Positions 642 to 37,459 of a DNA stretch of 64,000 nucleotides are shown here, piece by piece. The position numbers and the translations under genes were made by a program. Positions within the stretch are counted from its first letter, which is position 1, and the number at the start of each line of letters is the position of its first letter. Source of the DNA: Draconibacterium orientale (GTDB taxonomy: Bacteria > Bacteroidota > Bacteroidia > Bacteroidales > FEN-979); NCBI GenBank assembly GCA_020718225.1, contig DYSO01000001.1, forward strand, positions 10,968 through 74,967, in the 5' to 3' direction. The notes beneath the pieces were generated by a model that was given only the letters and a program-made list of their open reading frames with translations, searched no databases and had not been told where the DNA came from.

Positions 642-655
642 AACATTTAAATCTG

Positions 656-729
656 TGACCCCGAAGGGACTCGAACCCCCAACCAACAGAACCGGAATCT
701 GCCATTCTATCCAATTGAACTACGGGGCC
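656..729 (-). tRNA. tRNA-Arg (anticodon CCG)
   Basis: The reverse complement GGCCCCGTAGTTCAATTGGATAGAATGGCAGATTCCGGTTCTGTTGGTTGGGGGTTCGAGTCCCTTCGGGGTCA folds by hand into a cloverleaf. Acceptor is GGCCCCG/CGGGGTC, the anticodon loop TTCCGGT gives CCG, and the T-loop is TTCGAGT. CCA is not encoded. Confidence 0.9.
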
Positions 730-758
730 AAAAAGAGTGCAAAGATAAGTTTTTTTTG

Positions 759-766
759 TACTTTTG
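759..766 (+). promoter_or_regulatory. Bacteroidota -7 box (TAnnTTTG) upstream of fba
   Basis: tacttttg lies 31 nt upstream of ATG 797 and matches the Bacteroides sigma-AB -7 consensus. Confidence 0.45.
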
Positions 767-796
767 GGACTTAAAAGTATTAAAAACTTTAATCCT

Positions 797-1876
797 ATGT
801 CAGAAAAAATCTCAGATAAAGTTGGCGCTGGTGTTGCCACAGGTAATGCGGTGCAGGAAATTTTTAAAATGGCCAAGGCCAATAATTTTGCCATACCGGC
901 CGTCAATGTAGTGGGATCCAACTCGGTGAATGCCGTTATGGAGGCTGCCCGGACGGTGAATTCCCCGGTCATCATTCAATTTTCGAATGGCGGTGGCGTT
1001 TTTTATGCCGGAAAATCGTTAAAAAACGAGCATGAACGTATTGCCATCAAGGGATCGATTGCGGGAGCAAAACACATCCATGAAATTGCAGACCTTTATG
1101 GTATTCCGGTCATTATCCATACCGACCATGCCGCTAAAAAGTTACTTCCGTGGATTGACGGGCTGCTTGATGCAGGAGAGAAGTTCTTTCAGGAAAATGG
1201 CAAACCTTTGTTCAGTTCACACATGCTTGACCTTTCGGAAGAACCGCTTCATGAAAACATAGAGATCTGTAAACGTTACCTGGAACGGATGAATAAAATG
1301 GGAATGACCTTAGAGATTGAGCTGGGGGTCACCGGTGGGGAAGAAGACGGGGTGGATAACTCCGGAATTGACAGTTCACGTCTTTACACCCAGCCCGAAC
1401 ATGTGGCCCAGGCTTATGAGACCCTGCTGAGCGTAAGCCCCAATTTTACCATTGCCGCTTCATTCGGAAATGTACACGGTGTTTACAAACCCGGTAATGT
1501 AAAACTGGAACCCATCATCCTGCACAATTCACAAGTATATATCCAGAAGAAATTTAACACGGCGACAAATCCGGTGAATTTTGTCTTTCACGGAGGCTCC
1601 GGATCAGAACCTGAAAAAATCAAAGAGGCCATCTCGTACGGTGTTGTCAAGATGAATATTGACACCGATACCCAATGGGCTTTCTGGGAAGGTATACTGC
1701 ATTATTATCAGAAGAATAGCGGATATCTCCAGGGACAGATCGGCAATCCCGAAGGAGAAGATAAACCCAATAAAAAATATTACGACCCCCGCGCCTGGCT
1801 GCGTGAAAGTGAGAAATCGATGGTCGAAAGGTTAAAAACCGCATTTACCGATCTGAACTGTATCAACCGGTATTAA
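797..1876 (+). CDS. fba: fructose-bisphosphate aldolase, class II
   Basis: MSEKISDKVGAGVATGNAVQEIFKMAKANNFAIPAVNVVG parallels the E. coli FbaA N-terminus. Motifs PVIIQFSNGG, IHTDHAAK and FGNVHGVYKPGNV are present. Start moved from ORF start 764 to ATG 797. Confidence 0.95.
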   Translation: MSEKISDKVGAGVATGNAVQEIFKMAKANNFAIPAVNVVGSNSVNAVMEAARTVNSPVIIQFSNGGGVFYAGKSLKNEHERIAIKGSIAGAKHIHEIADLYGIPVIIHTDHAAKKLLPWIDGLLDAGEKFFQENGKPLFSSHMLDLSEEPLHENIEICKRYLERMNKMGMTLEIELGVTGGEEDGVDNSGIDSSRLYTQPEHVAQAYETLLSVSPNFTIAASFGNVHGVYKPGNVKLEPIILHNSQVYIQKKFNTATNPVNFVFHGGSGSEPEKIKEAISYGVVKMNIDTDTQWAFWEGILHYYQKNSGYLQGQIGNPEGEDKPNKKYYDPRAWLRESEKSMVERLKTAFTDLNCINRY

Positions 1877-4100: not shown

Positions 4101-5123
4101 ATGAACCAAAACCTGGATGCTTCCGCCCAAAATCTTACTACGGGCGATAAAGAGGTTGAGAAAGCATTACGTCCCTCAGGGTTTATTGAATTCTCGGGGC
4201 AGGAGGCAATTGTTGAAAATTTAAAAATATTTGTCCGGGCTGCCCGTCAGCGGGGTGAATCGCTCGACCATGTTTTGCTTCATGGTCCCCCGGGTTTGGG
4301 AAAGACCACCCTTGCCCATATAATCGCCAATGAATTGAGGGTCAACATCAGGGTAACTTCCGGTCCGGTTCTGGATAAACCGGGCGACTTAGCCGGATTG
4401 CTCACGGGGCTGGAACCGAACGATGTATTGTTTATTGACGAGATACACCGGTTATCACCGGTAGTTGAAGAGTATCTCTATTCAGCGATGGAGGATTACA
4501 AAATCGACATCATGATCGAAACGGGCCCGAATGCACGCAGCATCCAGATCAAACTGAATCCATTCACCCTGGTTGGCGCCACAACCCGGTCGGGGTTGCT
4601 CACCGCTCCGCTTCGTTCACGTTTCGGGATTAATGCCCGCCTGAACTATTATCAAAGCGATACCCTCGAACGGATTATCATCCGCTCTGCCCAAATCCTT
4701 CAGGTGGTCACTGATCCGCCGGCATCTGCCGAAATTGCACGCAGAAGCAGGGGCACACCCCGGATTGCCAACATGCTCCTTCGTCGTGTCCGCGATTTCG
4801 CCCAGATTAAAGGATCCGGCGAAATCGACCTGGCCATCAGCCAGTATGCCCTTTCGGCATTGAATGTGGATAAAAACGGCCTGGATGAAATGGATAATAA
4901 AATCCTCCTTACCATTATCGATAAATTCAAAGGAGGACCTGTTGGCCTTACCACCATCGCAACTGCTGTTTCAGAAGATGCAGGGACCATTGAAGAGGTG
5001 TACGAACCATTTCTCATCCAGGAGGGCTATCTGATGCGGACGCCAAGAGGACGCGAAGCCACCGACATGGCCTACCGCCATTTAGGGAAAATCAGGACCG
5101 GTACCCAGGATACGCTTTTTTAA
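4101..5123 (+). CDS. ruvB: Holliday junction branch migration helicase RuvB
   Basis: LRP..F.EF.GQ, Walker [15 protein letters not shown], Walker [10 protein letters not shown], and [16 protein letters not shown]. Confidence 0.97.
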
Positions 5124-5172
5124 ATAGCGAATAGTGAATAGTGAATAGTGAATAGTGAATAGTGAATATTGA
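5124..5172. repeat. 7-bp tandem array, 7 copies (ATAGCGA, ATAGTGA x5, ATATTGA)
   Basis: Counted base by base. It starts the nucleotide after the ruvB TAA and ends the nucleotide before the queG ATG. Confidence 0.97.
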
Positions 5173-6117
5173 ATGTCGAAGCTCATCGGAGAACGAGCAT
5201 TGACCGGCCATAAAGCGTTAATCCGTGAAGAAGCCCTGCGCCAGGGTTTTTTGCACTGTGGGTTTGCCCGCGCAGAACCGCCGGAAGAAATCCGTGGGTT
5301 CTATTCCAGCTACCTCGAAAAAAACAGGCAACTTTCCTTATCCTATCTGCAAAGCAACTTTGAAAAAAGGATGGACCCCTCCCTTGTTTTACCGGGGGTT
5401 AAATCCATTATTTCCCTCACCCTGGGTTATTCCGCACAGCCGCCCGTTCCTGAAAAAGATTCTTTTGTCATCGCCAAATATGCCCGTGGCGCCGATTATC
5501 ATGAAATCATGAAAAAAAAGATGGACCGGTTTATTTCATGGCTTAAAGCAGAGTTTGGGAGGGCCCGGATAAAACGGTTTGTCGATTCGGGGGCCATTCC
5601 TGAAAAATTCTGGGCCATGCGTTCCGGGGCCGGATGGCAGGGAAAAAATACCCTGATTATCCATAAGGAGGCGGGTTCCTTTTTTTTTATCGGCATCCTG
5701 CTGACCGACCTGGAACTGGAAGCCGATTCCCCGGCCACCGATCATTGCGGCCACTGTACAGAATGTATCAAAGCCTGTCCTACGGGGGCCCTCAACACGC
5801 CTTACCAGCTTGACATGTCGCGCTGTATTTCATACCACACCATCGAAAATAAAAACGCCATTCCGGAAGATATCATTCGCCATCTCGGCAACCGGATCTA
5901 TGGTTGCGACCTGTGCCAGGACGTTTGTCCCTATAACCGGGCCCCAAAACCAACAATCATTCCCGAATTCCTTCCCTCGCCGGATTTGATGAACATGGGA
6001 AAAACCGAATGGCTCAACCTGTCGGAAAAACAATTTGACCGGCTTTTCGGCCATTCTCCGGTCAAACGGATTGGATACGACCGGTTGATGAGAAATATAA
6101 ATGCCGCTTCGGGGTAA
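5173..6117 (+). CDS. queG: tRNA epoxyqueuosine(34) reductase QueG
   Basis: Two ferredoxin-type clusters, CGHCTECIKACPTGAL and GCDLCQDVCPYN. CISYHTIE is also present and length is ~314 aa. Confidence 0.92.
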   Translation: MSKLIGERALTGHKALIREEALRQGFLHCGFARAEPPEEIRGFYSSYLEKNRQLSLSYLQSNFEKRMDPSLVLPGVKSIISLTLGYSAQPPVPEKDSFVIAKYARGADYHEIMKKKMDRFISWLKAEFGRARIKRFVDSGAIPEKFWAMRSGAGWQGKNTLIIHKEAGSFFFIGILLTDLELEADSPATDHCGHCTECIKACPTGALNTPYQLDMSRCISYHTIENKNAIPEDIIRHLGNRIYGCDLCQDVCPYNRAPKPTIIPEFLPSPDLMNMGKTEWLNLSEKQFDRLFGHSPVKRIGYDRLMRNINAASG

Positions 6118-6146
6118 GGATGATGACTAAACGGTATCCGGCTTTT

Positions 6147-6734
6147 TTACAATGGTCCCTCAGCGGAACCCCAGGCATAGCTCCCCAGCTCAAACCCGGC
6201 AAGAGATAAAACCCTGTCGACAACCGTCATGGCCAGCGCTTCAATGGCAACAGGTTTGCTGTAAAACGAAGGGGATGCCGGGCAGATGATGGCGCCGGCT
6301 TCCGTCAGCAGTTTCATGTTGTTCAGGTGTACCAGGCTGAAAGGAGTTTCGCGGGGGACCAGGATCAGCTTCTTCCGTTCTTTCAGCATCACATCGGCAG
6401 CCCTGGTGAGCAGGTCGGACGAAACCCCGGATGCAATCCGGCCGAGGGTCCCCATGGTACAGGGACAAACAATCATGGTATTGTAACCGGCTGAACCGGA
6501 GGCCATCGGGGCAAAAAAATCGGCAGGGTTGTAAACGGTCATCCAATCGGGATAGGCAATAGAATCCGGATCTTCGTTGAGTTCGTACTTCCAGACTGCT
6601 TTTGCGTTTTCAGATAAAATAATCCCACATGCATCAACCTGATCGTGCACCAGACGCAATTTTTCCAGCAATAACCGCGCATAGAGCGCCCCACTGGCCC
6701 CTGTAACCCCGATAATCATCTTTTGTCCTTTCAT
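6147..6734 (-). CDS. ubiX: flavin prenyltransferase UbiX
   Basis: IIGVTGASGALYA, CPCTMGTLGRIA and LILVPRETP. Length ~190 aa. Start could instead be ATG 6719. Confidence 0.9.
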   Translation of the reverse strand: MKGQKMIIGVTGASGALYARLLLEKLRLVHDQVDACGIILSENAKAVWKYELNEDPDSIAYPDWMTVYNPADFFAPMASGSAGYNTMIVCPCTMGTLGRIASGVSSDLLTRAADVMLKERKKLILVPRETPFSLVHLNNMKLLTEAGAIICPASPSFYSKPVAIEALAMTVVDRVLSLAGFELGSYAWGSAEGPL

Positions 6735-19783: not shown

Positions 19784-20422
19784 ATGATCCATCTCCAAAA
19801 AATGACCTTTAATTCCTTTATGGTAAACACCTATTTGTTGTACGATGAAACCGGCGCATGTATCATCATCGATGCTGCCTGTTACGATGTTGAAGAACAA
19901 CAGGAAGTAAAGGATTTTTTGACAAAACATCACCTGAAACTGGTTCGTAACCTCAATACCCACTGCCATGTTGATCATGTGCTTGGAAACCCTTTTATTG
20001 CCGGTTCATTCCAGGTATTTCCCGAATATCACCAACACTCCCTTCCTTTTTTCAAGACCATCAGGGAGATTGGCTCCTCTTTCGGATACACCATCGACCA
20101 GCAGCCCGAACCTGCCCGTTTCCTGGTAGAGGATGAAACCATTCATTGGGGAAATTCATCTTTAAAAGTTCTTTTTACACCCGGTCATGCCGCCGGGAGC
20201 GTCTGTTTTTATAATGAAACCCAGGGATTTGTTATCACCGGGGATGTGTTGTTTAAAGATACCATCGGACGGACCGACCTTCCTTCGGGTGACTTCAATC
20301 AATTGATGAAAAGTATCAAAACCAAACTTTTTACCTTACCCCCCAATACCATCGTTTATCCGGGACACGGCCCTGAAACACAAATCGGGTATGAGATGGA
20401 GAATAATATGTTTATAAGGTAG
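19784..20422 (+). CDS. MBL-fold metallo-hydrolase (glyoxalase II-like)
   Basis: THCHVDHVLG (HxHxDH), TPGHAAGS and GDVLF..TIGRTDLP. Confidence 0.88.
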   Translation: MIHLQKMTFNSFMVNTYLLYDETGACIIIDAACYDVEEQQEVKDFLTKHHLKLVRNLNTHCHVDHVLGNPFIAGSFQVFPEYHQHSLPFFKTIREIGSSFGYTIDQQPEPARFLVEDETIHWGNSSLKVLFTPGHAAGSVCFYNETQGFVITGDVLFKDTIGRTDLPSGDFNQLMKSIKTKLFTLPPNTIVYPGHGPETQIGYEMENNMFIR

Positions 20423-20529
20423 CGAGGTAGCGAGGTGGCGAGGTGGCGAGGTGGCGAGGTGGCGAGGTGGCGAGGTGGCAAGGTAGCGAGGTGGCGAGGT
20501 GGCGAGGTAGCGAAATAGCGAAATAGCGA
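20418..20529. repeat. 8-bp tandem array, 14 copies (GGTAGCGA/GGTGGCGA, one GGTGGCAA, last two AATAGCGA)
   Basis: Counted base by base. The first unit contains the MBL TAG stop (20420-20422). The array ends 2 nt before ATG 20532. Confidence 0.97.
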
Positions 20530-20531
20530 AT

Positions 20532-21539
20532 ATGATTTCTTCCTTGGTAAAAATTCTTATTATCCGGTTTAGTTCCATTGGGGATATTGTTCTTACCACG
20601 CCTGTGATACGATGCCTGAAATCACAATTGCCCGGATTGGAACTTCACTATCTTACAAAAAAACAATTTCTTCCCATCCTTGAGCCGAATCCGTATATAA
20701 ATAAAGTGTGGGGTTACGATCGTAATTTTCGCGATCTGATTCCCCAATTGAAGTCCCAGGGCTTCGATTACGTTGTTGATCTGCATAAGAATTACCGGTC
20801 GGTTTTTGTTAAGCGCCAACTTCAGGTTGCTTCGGCATCTTTTCCGAAATTGAACCTTCAAAAATGGGTCACTGTCCATTTTAAAATGAATGTGATGCCC
20901 GATATCCATATTGTTGATCGGTATTTTGAGGCAGTTAAACCCCTGGGCATTCAAAATGACGCAGGGGGTCTTGATTACTTCATCCCGGCTGTGGATGAAG
21001 TTTCGCTTGCAGGTTTGCCCGCCACCCATCAAAAAGGGTTTTATGCCATAGTCATCGGAGGAAAACATAACACCAAGATCTTCCCGCCGGAGAAAATTGT
21101 CGAAGTGTGTAAAAAACTCTCACAACCGGTGGTCCTGCTTGGCGGGAATGAGGACCGGGAACGCGGGGAACAAATAGCAGAAAGGGCAGGAACACCGATT
21201 TACAATTCCTGCGGGCTGTACAACATCAGTCAGTCGGCTTCGTTCATCCGCCAGTCCAGGGCCGTACTGACAAACGATACCGGCCTGATGCATATTGCCG
21301 CTGCATTCGGCAAACACATGGTTTCGGTTTGGGGCAATACCATTCCGGCTTTTGGGATGTATCCTTACCTGCCGGAAAAATTCAAAGCAAATTCCATGAT
21401 CGCGGAGGTCAAGGGCCTTTCATGCCGCCCATGCAGCAAATTAGGGTTTAAACAATGTCCTAAAAAGCATTTTCATTGCATGATGCTGATAGATACCGAT
21501 CCGATCGTTGATTTTTTAATGCTTGATAATAAATCGTAA
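20532..21539 (+). CDS. glycosyltransferase family 9 (LPS heptosyltransferase-like)
   Basis: ILIIRFSSIGDIVLTTPVIRCLK, VVLLGG..D and TNDTGLMHIAAAFG are typical GT9 motifs. Confidence 0.88.
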   Translation: MISSLVKILIIRFSSIGDIVLTTPVIRCLKSQLPGLELHYLTKKQFLPILEPNPYINKVWGYDRNFRDLIPQLKSQGFDYVVDLHKNYRSVFVKRQLQVASASFPKLNLQKWVTVHFKMNVMPDIHIVDRYFEAVKPLGIQNDAGGLDYFIPAVDEVSLAGLPATHQKGFYAIVIGGKHNTKIFPPEKIVEVCKKLSQPVVLLGGNEDRERGEQIAERAGTPIYNSCGLYNISQSASFIRQSRAVLTNDTGLMHIAAAFGKHMVSVWGNTIPAFGMYPYLPEKFKANSMIAEVKGLSCRPCSKLGFKQCPKKHFHCMMLIDTDPIVDFLMLDNKS

Positions 21540-21652
21540 ATCGTATATCGTAAATCGTAAATCGTATATCGTAAATCGTATATCGTAAATCGTAAATCGT
21601 ATATCGTATATCGTATATCGTATATCGTAAATCGTAAATCGTAAATCGTAAA
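21534..21652. repeat. 7-bp tandem array, 17 copies (TCGTAAA/TCGTATA)
   Basis: Counted base by base. The first unit contains the GT9 TAA stop (21537-21539). The array ends 4 nt before the TTG start of tatD. Unit order by position 6 is A T A A T A T A A T T T T A A A A. Confidence 0.97.
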
Positions 21653-21656
21653 TCCA

Positions 21657-22507: not shown

Positions 22508-23536
22508 ATGATTGGACAAACAAATATTTTGGTGATCTATACCGGTGGGACCATCGGCATGGTTCAGGATCCAAAAACGATGGCGCTCCGTCCGTTGAGT
22601 TTCGACATCCTCTATAAGTACCTTCCGGTTCTGGAGAATTTCAACTGCACCATCGATTTTTATACGTTTGAGCCCCTGCTGGATTCATCGAACATGAACC
22701 CTTCGTTTTACATCCATCTGGCTACTGTGATCGAAGAAAAATACGAGGATTACGATGGTTTTGTCATTCTTCACGGGTCGGATACCATGGCCTATACGGC
22801 ATCGGCTTTGAGTTTTATGCTGGAGAACCTGAACAAACCTGTAATCTTTACGGGATCTCAGTTACCCATTGGAATGGTGCGGACTGACGGCCGTGAAAAT
22901 TTTATTAATTCCATTGAAATTGCCACCGCGAAGGAGTACGATACCCCGGTGGTGCCTGAAGTTGCCATTTGTTTTGAAAACAAACTTTACAGGGGGAACC
23001 GCACCAGCAAATTCAACGCCGAACATTTCGGCGCTTTCGTTTCGGTAAATTATCCCCTGTTGGCCGAAGTCGGGGTTCATATCAAATACAATCAAAATCT
23101 GATATTGAAACCTAATTTCAAGAAATTGAAGGCCCTCAAGACCCTCGATGAAAATATCACAATCCTGAAGTTGTTTCCCGGCATATCATCTCAGGCCGTT
23201 GAGGCCATACTCCATACAAAAGATTTGAAAGCCGTTATCCTTGAAACTTTTGGATCTGGAAATGCCCCGACCATTCCCTGGTTCATTGATCATCTTCAGG
23301 ATGCCATAACACGCGGAATTATTATTTATAATGTTACACAATGCAAAGGCGGAACGGTGGAGATGGGAAAATATGAAACCAGCGCCGGACTGAATAAAAT
23401 AGGTGTTATCGGAGGTTATGACATCACCACCGAATCGGCAGTAACCAAGCTGATGTACCTGCTGGGGTCCGGTTACTCCCAGGAAAGTATAAAACAATTG
23501 CTGCAAACCTCCCTACGGGGCGAAATGACTGTTTGA
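22508..23536 (+). CDS. ansA: L-asparaginase, type I
   Basis: ILVIYTGGTIGM (active-site Thr), VILHGSDTMAYTASAL and FGSGN. Confidence 0.92.
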   Translation: MIGQTNILVIYTGGTIGMVQDPKTMALRPLSFDILYKYLPVLENFNCTIDFYTFEPLLDSSNMNPSFYIHLATVIEEKYEDYDGFVILHGSDTMAYTASALSFMLENLNKPVIFTGSQLPIGMVRTDGRENFINSIEIATAKEYDTPVVPEVAICFENKLYRGNRTSKFNAEHFGAFVSVNYPLLAEVGVHIKYNQNLILKPNFKKLKALKTLDENITILKLFPGISSQAVEAILHTKDLKAVILETFGSGNAPTIPWFIDHLQDAITRGIIIYNVTQCKGGTVEMGKYETSAGLNKIGVIGGYDITTESAVTKLMYLLGSGYSQESIKQLLQTSLRGEMTV

Positions 23537-23553
23537 GAATCCCGAACTTTTTA

Positions 23554-23561
23554 TATCTTTG
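23554..23561 (+). promoter_or_regulatory. TAnnTTTG -7 box upstream of tRNA-Ser
   Basis: tatctttg. The heptamer array begins 5 nt downstream and the tRNA 66 nt downstream. Confidence 0.4.
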
Positions 23562-23565
23562 CACA

Positions 23566-23621
23566 TCGTAAAACGTAAATCGTAAATCGTAAATCGTAAA
23601 TCGTAAATCGTAAATCGTAAA
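23566..23621. repeat. 7-bp tandem array, 8 copies (TCGTAAA, one ACGTAAA)
   Basis: Counted base by base. Same unit and orientation as 21534-21652. Ends 5 nt before tRNA-Ser. Confidence 0.97.
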
Positions 23622-23626
23622 TTCCT

Positions 23627-23714
23627 GGAGAGGTGTCCGAGTGGTCGAAGGAGCACGCCTGGAAAGTGTGTGTACGCCAAAAGTGTACCCTGGGTTCGAA
23701 TCCCAGTCTCTCCG
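23627..23714 (+). tRNA. tRNA-Ser (anticodon GGA)
   Basis: GGAGAGGTGTCCGAGTGGTCGAAGGAGCACGCCTGGAAAGTGTGTGTACGCCAAAAGTGTACCCTGGGTTCGAATCCCAGTCTCTCCG. Anticodon loop CTGGAAA, long variable arm (GTAC..GTAC) typical of class II tRNA, T-arm CTGGG/TTCGAAT/CCCAG. Confidence 0.9.
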
Positions 23715-23737
23715 CTCAGAATGAATGCTGTTTAACG

Positions 23738-23780
23738 AAAACCACTGAAAACATGGATGTTTTGGTGGTTTTTTGTTTTT
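23738..23780 (+). terminator. rho-independent terminator after tRNA-Ser
   Basis: Imperfect hairpin aaaaccactgaaaacat..atgttttggtggtttt followed by ttttgttttt. Confidence 0.55.
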
Positions 23781-24055
23781 ATTAAAAGTAACATAAAGCA
23801 TTCAAAAGTAAACTTTCAGTGGCTTATTCGGTGGACTGAATTATTTTCCCTCCAAGTCCACCGATTTAGCATATTATGCACTGATTTACACTACTTTACA
23901 TTTCATTCTTTTGCTCTTGGTATCTAATTTAGTTAACCCGGCAAATTTTCCACAGGCAGTAAGGTCAATAATTCTGAAAGCGTTCTGTTTTTTTTCTGAC
24001 GGTTTTTCTGTCGATGTTAGCCTCTCCTTAATCAGGTTGATGACCGATCAAAAAA

Positions 24056-37177: not shown

Positions 37178-37459
37178 AATATTGAGCCCACTCCGAAAAG
37201 TATTTTTTTTACGACATCGACACAATCATTACGCTATTGCTTGGGACATCGGGCCCCATCCCCCCGGCCCCCTTCCCCAAAAAGGGAAGGGGGCGGGTTG
37301 TGCTAATAATTCATAACGCTGTTAATCAAAGTGTTAGATTGATTAGAACACACCTCCCCTCCATTTTTGGGGAGGGGCCGGGGGTGGGGTACAATAAAGG
37401 ACGATATGATAAATAGCATACCATTATTTGTTTTGCCTTTTCGGAGGGGACTCAATATT
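37178..37459. mobile_element. 282-bp nested imperfect palindrome (MITE-like element)
   Basis: Outer inverted repeat aatattgagcccactccgaaaag (37178-37200) versus cttttcggaggggactcaatatt (37437-37459), 21/23 complementary. Inner GC-rich inverted repeat ccccatccccccggcccc (37254-37271) versus ggggccgggggtgggg (37374-37389). Local hairpins at 37268-37293 and 37353-37375. All share the same symmetry centre near 37320. Confidence 0.5.

Follow-up and report, generated by a model that had tools for sequence, protein, structure and literature searches.

Tandem heptamers of the short tandemly repeated repetitive (STRR) type were reportedly described in cyanobacteria by Mazel in 1990. Among the long simple sequence repeats (LSSRs) of prokaryotes, those with heptameric units are the most abundant, and polymerase slippage has been proposed as their origin (Mrazek, 2007, as summarized in PMC4679880 and PMC4692102). 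In Xanthomonas, GGGAATC arrays are located between co-oriented open reading frames (ORFs), in some cases form inverted pairs and vary widely in length at conserved positions (PMC4692102). The TAACTGA arrays studied by MacGregor (2015) lie close upstream of start codons or, when reversed, directly behind stop codons; they are found in Beggiatoaceae, cyanobacteria and five Bacteroidetes, their spacers also hold other heptamer arrays, and contigs break inside the arrays (PMC4679880). A different case is the (ATCTTTC)n repeat in the 5' untranslated region of hmw1A of Haemophilus influenzae, which forms a hairpin that is cleaved by RNase III, expression being inverse to copy number (PMC12721329). 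The locus considered here lies in a 64-kb stretch of contig DYSO01000001.1, assigned to Draconibacterium orientale (64,000 nt, hereafter the window), where eight tandem heptamers, nearly all of them TCGTAAA, stand directly before the gene for tRNA-Ser(GGA). The array is an intergenic heptanucleotide LSSR of the STRR-like kind, and it is probably a hypermutable simple sequence repeat (SSR) that has expanded between the promoter and the mature 5' end of this tRNA, with no sequence-specific role in the tRNA. A literature text search returned no paper with the TCGTAAA tandem TCGTAAATCGTAAA or its complement.

The gene on the 5' side of the array encodes a type I asparaginase (22508-23536), and the elements that follow it are these:

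23532..23535, + strand: -33-like TTTG of the tRNA-Ser promoter, overlapping the asparaginase TGA (23534-23536) and 18 nt before the -7 box
23554..23563, + strand: -7 box TATCTTTG (23554-23561) followed by CA, candidate Bacteroidetes primary-sigma promoter from its sequence and the orthologue consensus
23566..23621, + strand: heptamer array, body of the inferred pre-tRNA 5' leader (direct reading, Tandem Repeats Finder (TRF) and repeat finding)
23622..23626, + strand: TTCCT, the pyrimidine-rich last 5 nt of the leader (orthologue positions -3 to -1 are mostly C, C and T)
23627..23715, + strand: tRNA-Ser(GGA), class II with a long variable arm (ARAGORN; Rfam RF00005, 50.4 bits)
23738..23783, + strand: terminator-like hairpin with arms at 23738-23750 and 23760-23772, then a U run (strand folding and inverted repeats)

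The array comprises 56 nt, with units that start at 23566, 23573, 23580, 23587, 23594, 23601, 23608 and 23615. Seven units are TCGTAAA and the second one (23573) is ACGTAAA; TRF reports positions 23565-23622 with period 7, 8.3 copies, 96% matches and a score of 109. A preliminary description of this DNA had given eight identical heptamers set 5 nt after a -7 box and 5 nt before the mature tRNA. The box is present where it was claimed, the number of units holds and the second 5-nt interval is confirmed as TTCCT, but the units are not all identical and the gap between box and array is 4 nt (CACA). The stretch from the box to the tRNA contains no hairpin, hence no intervening terminator, and an intact tRNA-Ser(GGA) follows directly downstream. 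The hairpin and U run after the tRNA likely mark the end of its transcription unit according to the folding predictions; the simple terminator scan missed this hairpin (23738-23772), and that scan, like the one for sigma-70-type promoters, was set aside as uninformative for a Bacteroidetes organism.

The leader of the window is predicted to be unstructured, with a minimum free energy of -3.4 kcal/mol (z -1.0). In the centroid structure of the whole predicted transcript the array is unpaired, and both the cloverleaf and the terminator are predicted to remain intact. No inverted partner of the array was found within 23450-23950, and folding together with an inverted-repeat search gave neither a leader hairpin nor a leader-trailer pairing at the window tRNA-Ser. 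At gathering thresholds, Rfam recognized in the window the two tRNAs and no further RNA family. TCGTAAA occurs 20 times on the + strand of the window against about 5 expected, and five period-7/8 arrays scoring at least 45 (scores 46-201) are present against none in 50 dinucleotide-preserving shuffles. An assembly artefact was ruled out, since two independent assemblies agree and a typical 150-nt Illumina read is longer than the array; the second one, a separate Logan assembly of SRR17737360 (L082; loci and contigs used for comparison are given as L numbers), has the same promoter and first units, including ACGTAAA, and its contig stops inside the array.

A search with the asparaginase in 185,579 species-representative genomes gave 80 loci at 59-89% amino-acid identity, and in about 60 of them tRNA-Ser(GGA) is located 3' of the asparaginase gene. 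The named relatives carry the labels Prolixibacteraceae or Draconibacterium, and the lineage is one of uncultured freshwater Bacteroidales. Fifty-two related Bacteroidales loci aligned on the -7 box share the consensus GTTTGA(stop), 17 nt, TAccTTTGCA, stop codon and box being 17 nt apart in 31 loci and 18 nt apart in 8. In the window, TATCTTTG at 23554-61 and TTTG at 23532-35, 18 nt apart, are consistent with the Bacteroidetes promoter consensus of -33 TTTG and -7 TAnnTTTG (PMC7366714). The tRNA-Ser itself has a median identity of 100% to its orthologues. In contrast, anything between 8 and 136 nt (median 75.5) separates the box from the tRNA. As the promoter spacing is kept while the box-to-tRNA distance varies, the -7 box is very probably the tRNA-Ser promoter, and what lies between the start site and the tRNA appears unconstrained. 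The proposal of the preliminary description, that the box is the promoter and that the pre-tRNA leader is essentially repeat which RNase P must remove, thus gains strong support from the conserved promoter geometry, the conserved tRNA and the variable leader, with the start site and the removal still read from sequence.

The sequences that occupy this variable position fall into several families. About 19 loci have ATTTCGCT/ATTTCACY octamers; TTTACGA/TCGTAAA units are found in L011, L015, L017, L035, L040, L043, L044 and the window, CACCCA units in L027, L030, L036, L037, L047 and L049, and further families are built on AGTGAAA/TTTCACT, GAATTAA/CTTAACA, CGTGATG/TCACCAT, CTGCCAA and others. The leader position is a repeat hot spot in most relatives, usually in the form of a repeat-armed hairpin, a point that the preliminary description had missed. 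On the other hand, L041, L014, L024, L008, L048, L045 and L034 have short leaders of 8-28 nt with no tandem repeats. The preliminary description had stated that its view would suffer if the array were missing before the orthologous tRNA in all relatives with no consequence, and the comparison largely gave this outcome, (TCGTAAA)8 being found before none of the orthologous tRNAs. Since the array is missing from every relative examined, its particular sequence is most likely dispensable for the tRNA, as far as comparison of genomes can tell.

The second tRNA gene of the window has a repeat-free architecture:

655..747, - strand: tRNA-Arg(CCG) (729-655) with its TATCTTTGCA box (747-738), comparator for tRNA-Ser

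The 10-mer TATCTTTGCA is identical to that of tRNA-Ser and lies 8 nt upstream of the tRNA-Arg gene. When the array is subtracted, the distance from box to tRNA-Ser is 9 nt, compared with 10 nt from the G of the box in tRNA-Arg and with 8, 13, 16 and 19 nt in repeat-free orthologues, so that the Ser leader can be described as a canonical leader of about 9 nt (CACA plus TTCCT) with a 56-nt repeat insert.

Turnover is also seen among the closest strains. In L083-L085 the asparaginase is 99% identical and the flanking DNA has 94-97% nucleotide identity to the window, and the leader is an unrelated hairpin of 122 nt; homology to the window ends exactly with the stop codon (23536), returns at 23626 for the stretch up to 23715 and, after a second interruption, is found again from 23897. 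The same 122-nt leader is found in the more distant 94% strains L086-L091 and L221, and another allele in L222. The allele of the window was sought in other strains through CGTAAATTCCTGGAGAGG, which was found only in the genome of the window and in L015, and the nearest asparaginase variants gave other alleles. Any role that the preliminary description may have implied for this particular array is thus left unsupported, with relatives whose flanking DNA is 95-97% identical carrying an unrelated leader and several species managing with 8-28 nt. The window contains further arrays of the same kind:

21530..21654, + strand: sister array TCGTAAA/TCGTATA, 17.9 copies, spacer between the GT9 and tatD genes (TRF, gene calls)
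20417..20530, + strand: octamer arrays (AGGTGGCG/AGGTAGCG) x12 and (TAGCGAAA) x3 (TRF, gene calls)
5123..5174, + strand: heptamer array (AATAGTG) x7.4, spacer between ruvB and queG (TRF, gene calls)

The sister array is the one that had been noted about 2 kb upstream, between protein-coding genes and with the unit in the same orientation. It consists of 10 TCGTAAA and 7 TCGTATA units and extends from the GT9 stop codon (21537-21539) almost to tatD, leaving 2 nt before its TTG start (21657). Its copy number changes from 18 in the window to 2 in L083, 4 in L085 and 5 in L084, and it is absent in L086. The octamer arrays fill the spacer between an MBL-fold hydrolase gene and the GT9 gene, with the TAG stop (20420-20422) inside the first unit, and reach up to the GT9 ATG (20532); the AATAGTG array fills the interval from the ruvB stop codon (5121-5123) to the queG ATG (5173). 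All four spacers with long arrays lie between co-directional genes of the + strand, and the arrays abut a stop codon, a start codon or a tRNA. In the three spacers between protein-coding genes, the stop codon is inside the first unit or abuts it and the array reaches the start codon or falls no more than 2 nt short of it, so that these intercistronic spacers hold the repeat and nothing else. TCGTAAA arrays occur both between protein-coding genes and before a tRNA, which bears out the remark of the preliminary description that the unit is tied to neither mRNA nor tRNA contexts. In 594 kb of DNA from related loci, the tandem repeats are dominated by periods 7 (51 arrays) and 8 (33 arrays) together with the multiples 14, 16 and 21, and the arrays are concentrated in each of the four spacers of the syntenic block.

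These observations place the array within a known class. It shows all the defining features of LSSRs: tandem 7-nt units beyond chance; a non-coding position between co-oriented genes and near gene ends; numerous arrays, period 7 (and 8) being the most frequent; and copy number and sequence that vary between close relatives. As LSSRs with units of 5-11 nt are summarized in PMC4679880 and PMC4692102 (Mrazek, 2007), the likeness extends to head-to-tail 7-nt units, many arrays, intergenic position and lineage-specific abundance; the present case differs by its location in a tRNA leader downstream of the promoter, by its unit TCGTAAA and by its host, an uncultured freshwater Bacteroidales. Arrays of GGGAATC in Xanthomonas, of GGGGA(C/T)T in Nostoc and of the cyanobacterial STRR type are similarly intergenic, between co-oriented ORFs and near gene ends, with conserved positions at which length and sequence vary between close relatives, and some form inverted pairs (Rehm et al., 2015, PMC4692102). 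However, the Xanthomonas and Nostoc units are G-rich and capable of forming G-quadruplexes (PMC4692102), whereas TCGTAAA is A/T-rich and has no predicted structure; additionally, the present lineage uses many different units, none of them dominant. The TAACTGA arrays are alike in being tandem intergenic heptamers that contain a stop codon, stand a few nt before a start codon and occur in several phyla, but they differ in the unit and were described before ORFs and not before tRNAs, and the translational role proposed for them does not apply to a tRNA leader (PMC4679880). Candidates of another nature were also considered. A mobile element similar to repetitive extragenic palindromic sequences (REP), bacterial interspersed mosaic elements (BIME) or miniature inverted-repeat transposable elements (MITE) was rejected because no inverted arm is present in 23450-23950, the window holds arrays built on different units, the two that share TCGTAAA are not near-identical to each other and Rfam matches tRNA only. 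A phage origin was rejected as well, (TCGTAAA)4 being found in only 9 viral contigs, some of them in giant-virus bins.

In the explanation that we favour, replication slippage would create and resize the 7-8-nt arrays, in relatives probably together with template switching between inverted arms, and arrays would persist only where they disrupt nothing, that is, in spacers between co-directional genes and in the tRNA-Ser leader. Transcription would start a few nt after TATCTTTG and give a leader of about 60 nt, nearly all of it (UCGUAAA)8. RNase P has a universal role in the cleavage of pre-tRNA 5' leaders; here it would remove a leader whose lack of structure spares the cloverleaf, and the leader would presumably then be degraded. 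Neither the sequence nor the copy number would have a sequence-specific role in the tRNA, and at most the length or the structure of the leader may modulate the processing of the precursor. We infer both the neutrality of the array and slippage as its mechanism.

Several results weigh against a purely neutral account. About 45 of the 52 orthologues keep a leader longer than 40 nt instead of a minimal one. Among the approximately 45 foldable leaders, 33 are more than 2 standard deviations more stable than their dinucleotide shuffles (z < -2), compared with 17 of the 58 further spacers folded from this block, where start codons had been assigned crudely. One covarying pair, which is CG in 10 leaders, UA in 3 and UG in 2, is present in YGAAAU/AUUUCR, the outer stem of the most frequent class. 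The excess of hairpins and the covariation, which neutrality alone does not predict, hint at selection, or at a templated mechanism, for leader structure. Copy-number polymorphism was observed for the sister array and not for the leader array itself, one genome with the allele having been found. The AAATCGT unit at the GT9-tatD spacer also occurs in L012, L017, L029, L030 and L036, so that at least six species retain it. Finally, in metagenomes the exact (TCGTAAA)4 is present in at least 120 contigs (G+C 36-68% among the matches listed), and the 62 arrays with adequate flanks among those matches have a same-strand ORF start at most 30 nt downstream in 22 cases and an opposite one in 2, a count made for the TCGTAAA unit only and with no control heptamer. 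The retention of AAATCGT and the orientation of arrays toward the downstream gene could reflect function.

The hairpins of the relatives suggest three other readings of the locus. In most of the long orthologous leaders the units on the 5' side can pair with those on the 3' side; the resulting hairpins begin about 3 nt past the inferred start and end 5-10 nt short of the tRNA, and many are followed by a short T-rich stretch. The window leader is the exception to this trend, being unstructured and devoid of a complementary arm. The broadest reading is that the tRNA-Ser(GGA) leader of this Bacteroidales family is a maintained RNA element, conserved in structure and not in sequence: a 5'-terminal hairpin in which the 7-8-nt units are replaced and resized again and again without loss of pairing between the arms. 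Such an element would act on the processing or the stability of the precursor, or on transcription that reads through from the asparaginase gene. (UCGUAAA)8 would be a natural 'open' variant of it, and, more widely, oriented heptamer arrays close 5' of ORFs and tRNAs in several phyla could form a general class of cis-acting leaders in bacteria that do not use Shine-Dalgarno sequences to initiate translation. We regard this reading as unlikely.

A related possibility, which we consider doubtful to about the same degree, is a rheostat or contingency locus like hmw1A, in which the number of repeats tunes tRNA-Ser(GGA) via leader length or a hairpin, through RNase III or RNase P and the stability or maturation of the precursor, slippage giving heritable expression variants. 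The hmw1A repeat offers the precedent of a heptamer SSR in a transcribed 5' leader whose hairpin is cleaved by RNase III (PMC12721329). The position of the window array, downstream of a conserved -7 box, inside the inferred transcribed leader and not between promoter elements, would fit this idea, and most leaders of relatives are long repeat-armed hairpins, more often stable than the neighbouring spacers and with the covarying pair already described. However, hmw1A is an adhesin mRNA controlled via RNase III (PMC12721329), whereas the window array precedes a tRNA and its leader lacks a stable repeat-armed hairpin; with no complementary arm and no predicted structure, the RNase III mechanism is inapplicable here. 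Moreover, several species manage with leaders of 8-28 nt, and a housekeeping tRNA would be an unusual target of phase variation. Another form of such control, in which an SSR in the promoter spacer causes phase variation, was rejected: the -33/-7 spacing does not vary, and the position of the array, which starts 4 nt past the -7 box, excludes control via promoter spacing.

The third reading concerns the history of the allele. The junction of TCGTAAATTCCT with GG in the window has an exact match in L015, and L011 and L035 differ from it by a single additional T; all three loci also carry a 5' TTTACGA arm that pairs with TCGTAAA. From this common 3' junction and the extra 5' arm, the window allele looks like a member of the TTTACGA/TCGTAAA hairpin class that lacks the 5' arm and retains only the 3' arm, expanded to eight copies. 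The array might then be the decayed remnant of an ancestral 5'-terminal stem-loop (a stabilizer, a processing site or an insulator against read-through from asparaginase), its 5' arm lost and its 3' arm non-functional. The match of L011, L015 and L035 to the stop-proximal sequence of the window and to the junction TCGTAAATT(T)CCT followed by GG, the recurrence of hairpins in several unrelated unit families at the locus and the T-rich stretch after many of them agree with this idea, but the function of the hairpin is only supposed, short repeat-free leaders exist, and template switching on quasi-palindromes could make complementary arms without selection. We consider a functional ancestor quite improbable; nevertheless, the account is compatible with the favoured explanation, the array being non-functional here in both.

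Outside the lineage, the unit also appears before genes of other kinds. In L151 (65% G+C), which is verrucomicrobial by its DnaX relatives, an array stands 4 nt before the dnaX start codon, and an array likewise precedes dnaX in L145. Among the matches listed, an inverted (TTTACGA)2 arm occurs within 150 nt of the 62 arrays, upstream in 17 and downstream in 3, and a frequent layout is stop codon, (TTTACGA)n, loop, (TCGTAAA)n and start codon. Heptamer arrays are also located upstream of tRNA-His, tRNA-Thr, tRNA-Ala and tRNA-Arg in unrelated contigs and on both sides of tRNA-Sec. In L167 (54% G+C; 700-905, minus strand) an inter-tRNA spacer contains an arm resembling TTTACGA, then a loop and (TCGTAAA)4, which ends 14 nt before tRNA-His and is oriented as in the window, and a (CAAAATC)-type array directly abuts the 5' end of tRNA-Thr; in L153 (602-783, equal to L218 939-1120) tRNA-Sec has (GTTCGAT)4.7 upstream and (CGATTTA)4.9 right after its CCA end. 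The recurrence of TCGTAAA arrays in at least two phyla, Bacteroidota and Verrucomicrobiota, together with the same-strand ORF starts, the array before tRNA-His and the retention of AAATCGT at the GT9-tatD spacer in several species, is the basis of a further reading, in which the array is a single-stranded RNA platform where a UCGUAAA-type motif every 7 nt binds a factor before ORFs and tRNAs alike. MacGregor proposed binding of S1, Csp or CsrA for the TAACTGA arrays (PMC4679880). For the present unit, ribosomal protein S1, cold-shock or RNA recognition motif (RRM)-type proteins, or Rho through the repeated UC, would be candidates. The closest strains lack the array, the many unrelated units in the orthologous leaders and spacers make a sequence-specific reader unlikely, and a unit with as many C as G is a poor loading site for Rho. 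The recurrence across phyla may carry no special weight, as it comes from an exact-unit search of a very large database with no control heptamer and may only mirror the number of heptamer arrays. Sense-strand stop codons in arrays (36 vs 28 of 57) are not convincingly enriched, and a translation-related constraint was dropped for this reason. Altogether, a binding platform seems to us very unlikely, and a hypermutable SSR with no sequence-specific role remains the preferred reading.

Intergenic heptamer arrays being a known class, what the locus adds is a slightly unusual place for one, the leader of a tRNA; the repeat-armed hairpins of the leaders across the lineage are a curious context, and the finding overturns nothing. 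In this lineage the only bases free to evolve around a tRNA gene, from the start site to the RNase P site, appear to have been colonized by 7-8-nt repeats, and whole intercistronic spacers can be made of them. In practice, such arrays break metagenome assemblies, supply stop codons and start contexts that confuse gene callers, and can be used as markers to tell strains apart. Should the hairpins in the leaders of relatives prove to be under selection, the locus would offer a tractable natural series running from 0 to about 18 units, some members having a complementary arm and others not, which could probe the effect of leader length and structure on tRNA maturation in Bacteroidetes and the preference of long SSRs for heptamers.

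Other features of the locus concern recombination and assembly. The trailer of the window tRNA (23716-23896) is non-homologous to that of the relatives with 95-97% nucleotide identity and 95.5% identical to that of the more distant L086; this kinship is at odds with that of the flanks and indicates that the locus is a recombination mosaic. In the 94% relatives L086-L088 (~5006-6260), tRNA-Ser(GGA) is followed after about 300 nt by the gene for a tyrosine integrase, which suggests that the tRNA serves as an integration site. Public short-read contigs often end in the leader array or in the tRNA-Ser gene (L082, L004, L012, L032, L039), so that the repeats and the integration-site tRNA appear to fragment assemblies of this lineage.

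Further repeats of other types are also present. The window contains two G/C-rich hairpins (ccccttccccaaaaagggaagggg and cctcccctccatttttggggagggg) at 37243-37400, in a 509-nt gap with no ORF call, and akin to them are tandem GGGG/CCCC-rich 18-19-mers in L025 (5478-5698), L027 (5410-5562) and L049 (5358-5416), as well as GGGG/CCCC-rich units in the tRNA-Ser leaders of L001 and L051. Upstream of asparaginase, tandem (TTTTGCA)n or (TAATTTTGCATTT)2 units are found in L028 (3958-3983), L007 (3949-3974), L009 (547-576) and L005 (3956-3983), and these resemble tandemly duplicated -7 promoter boxes.

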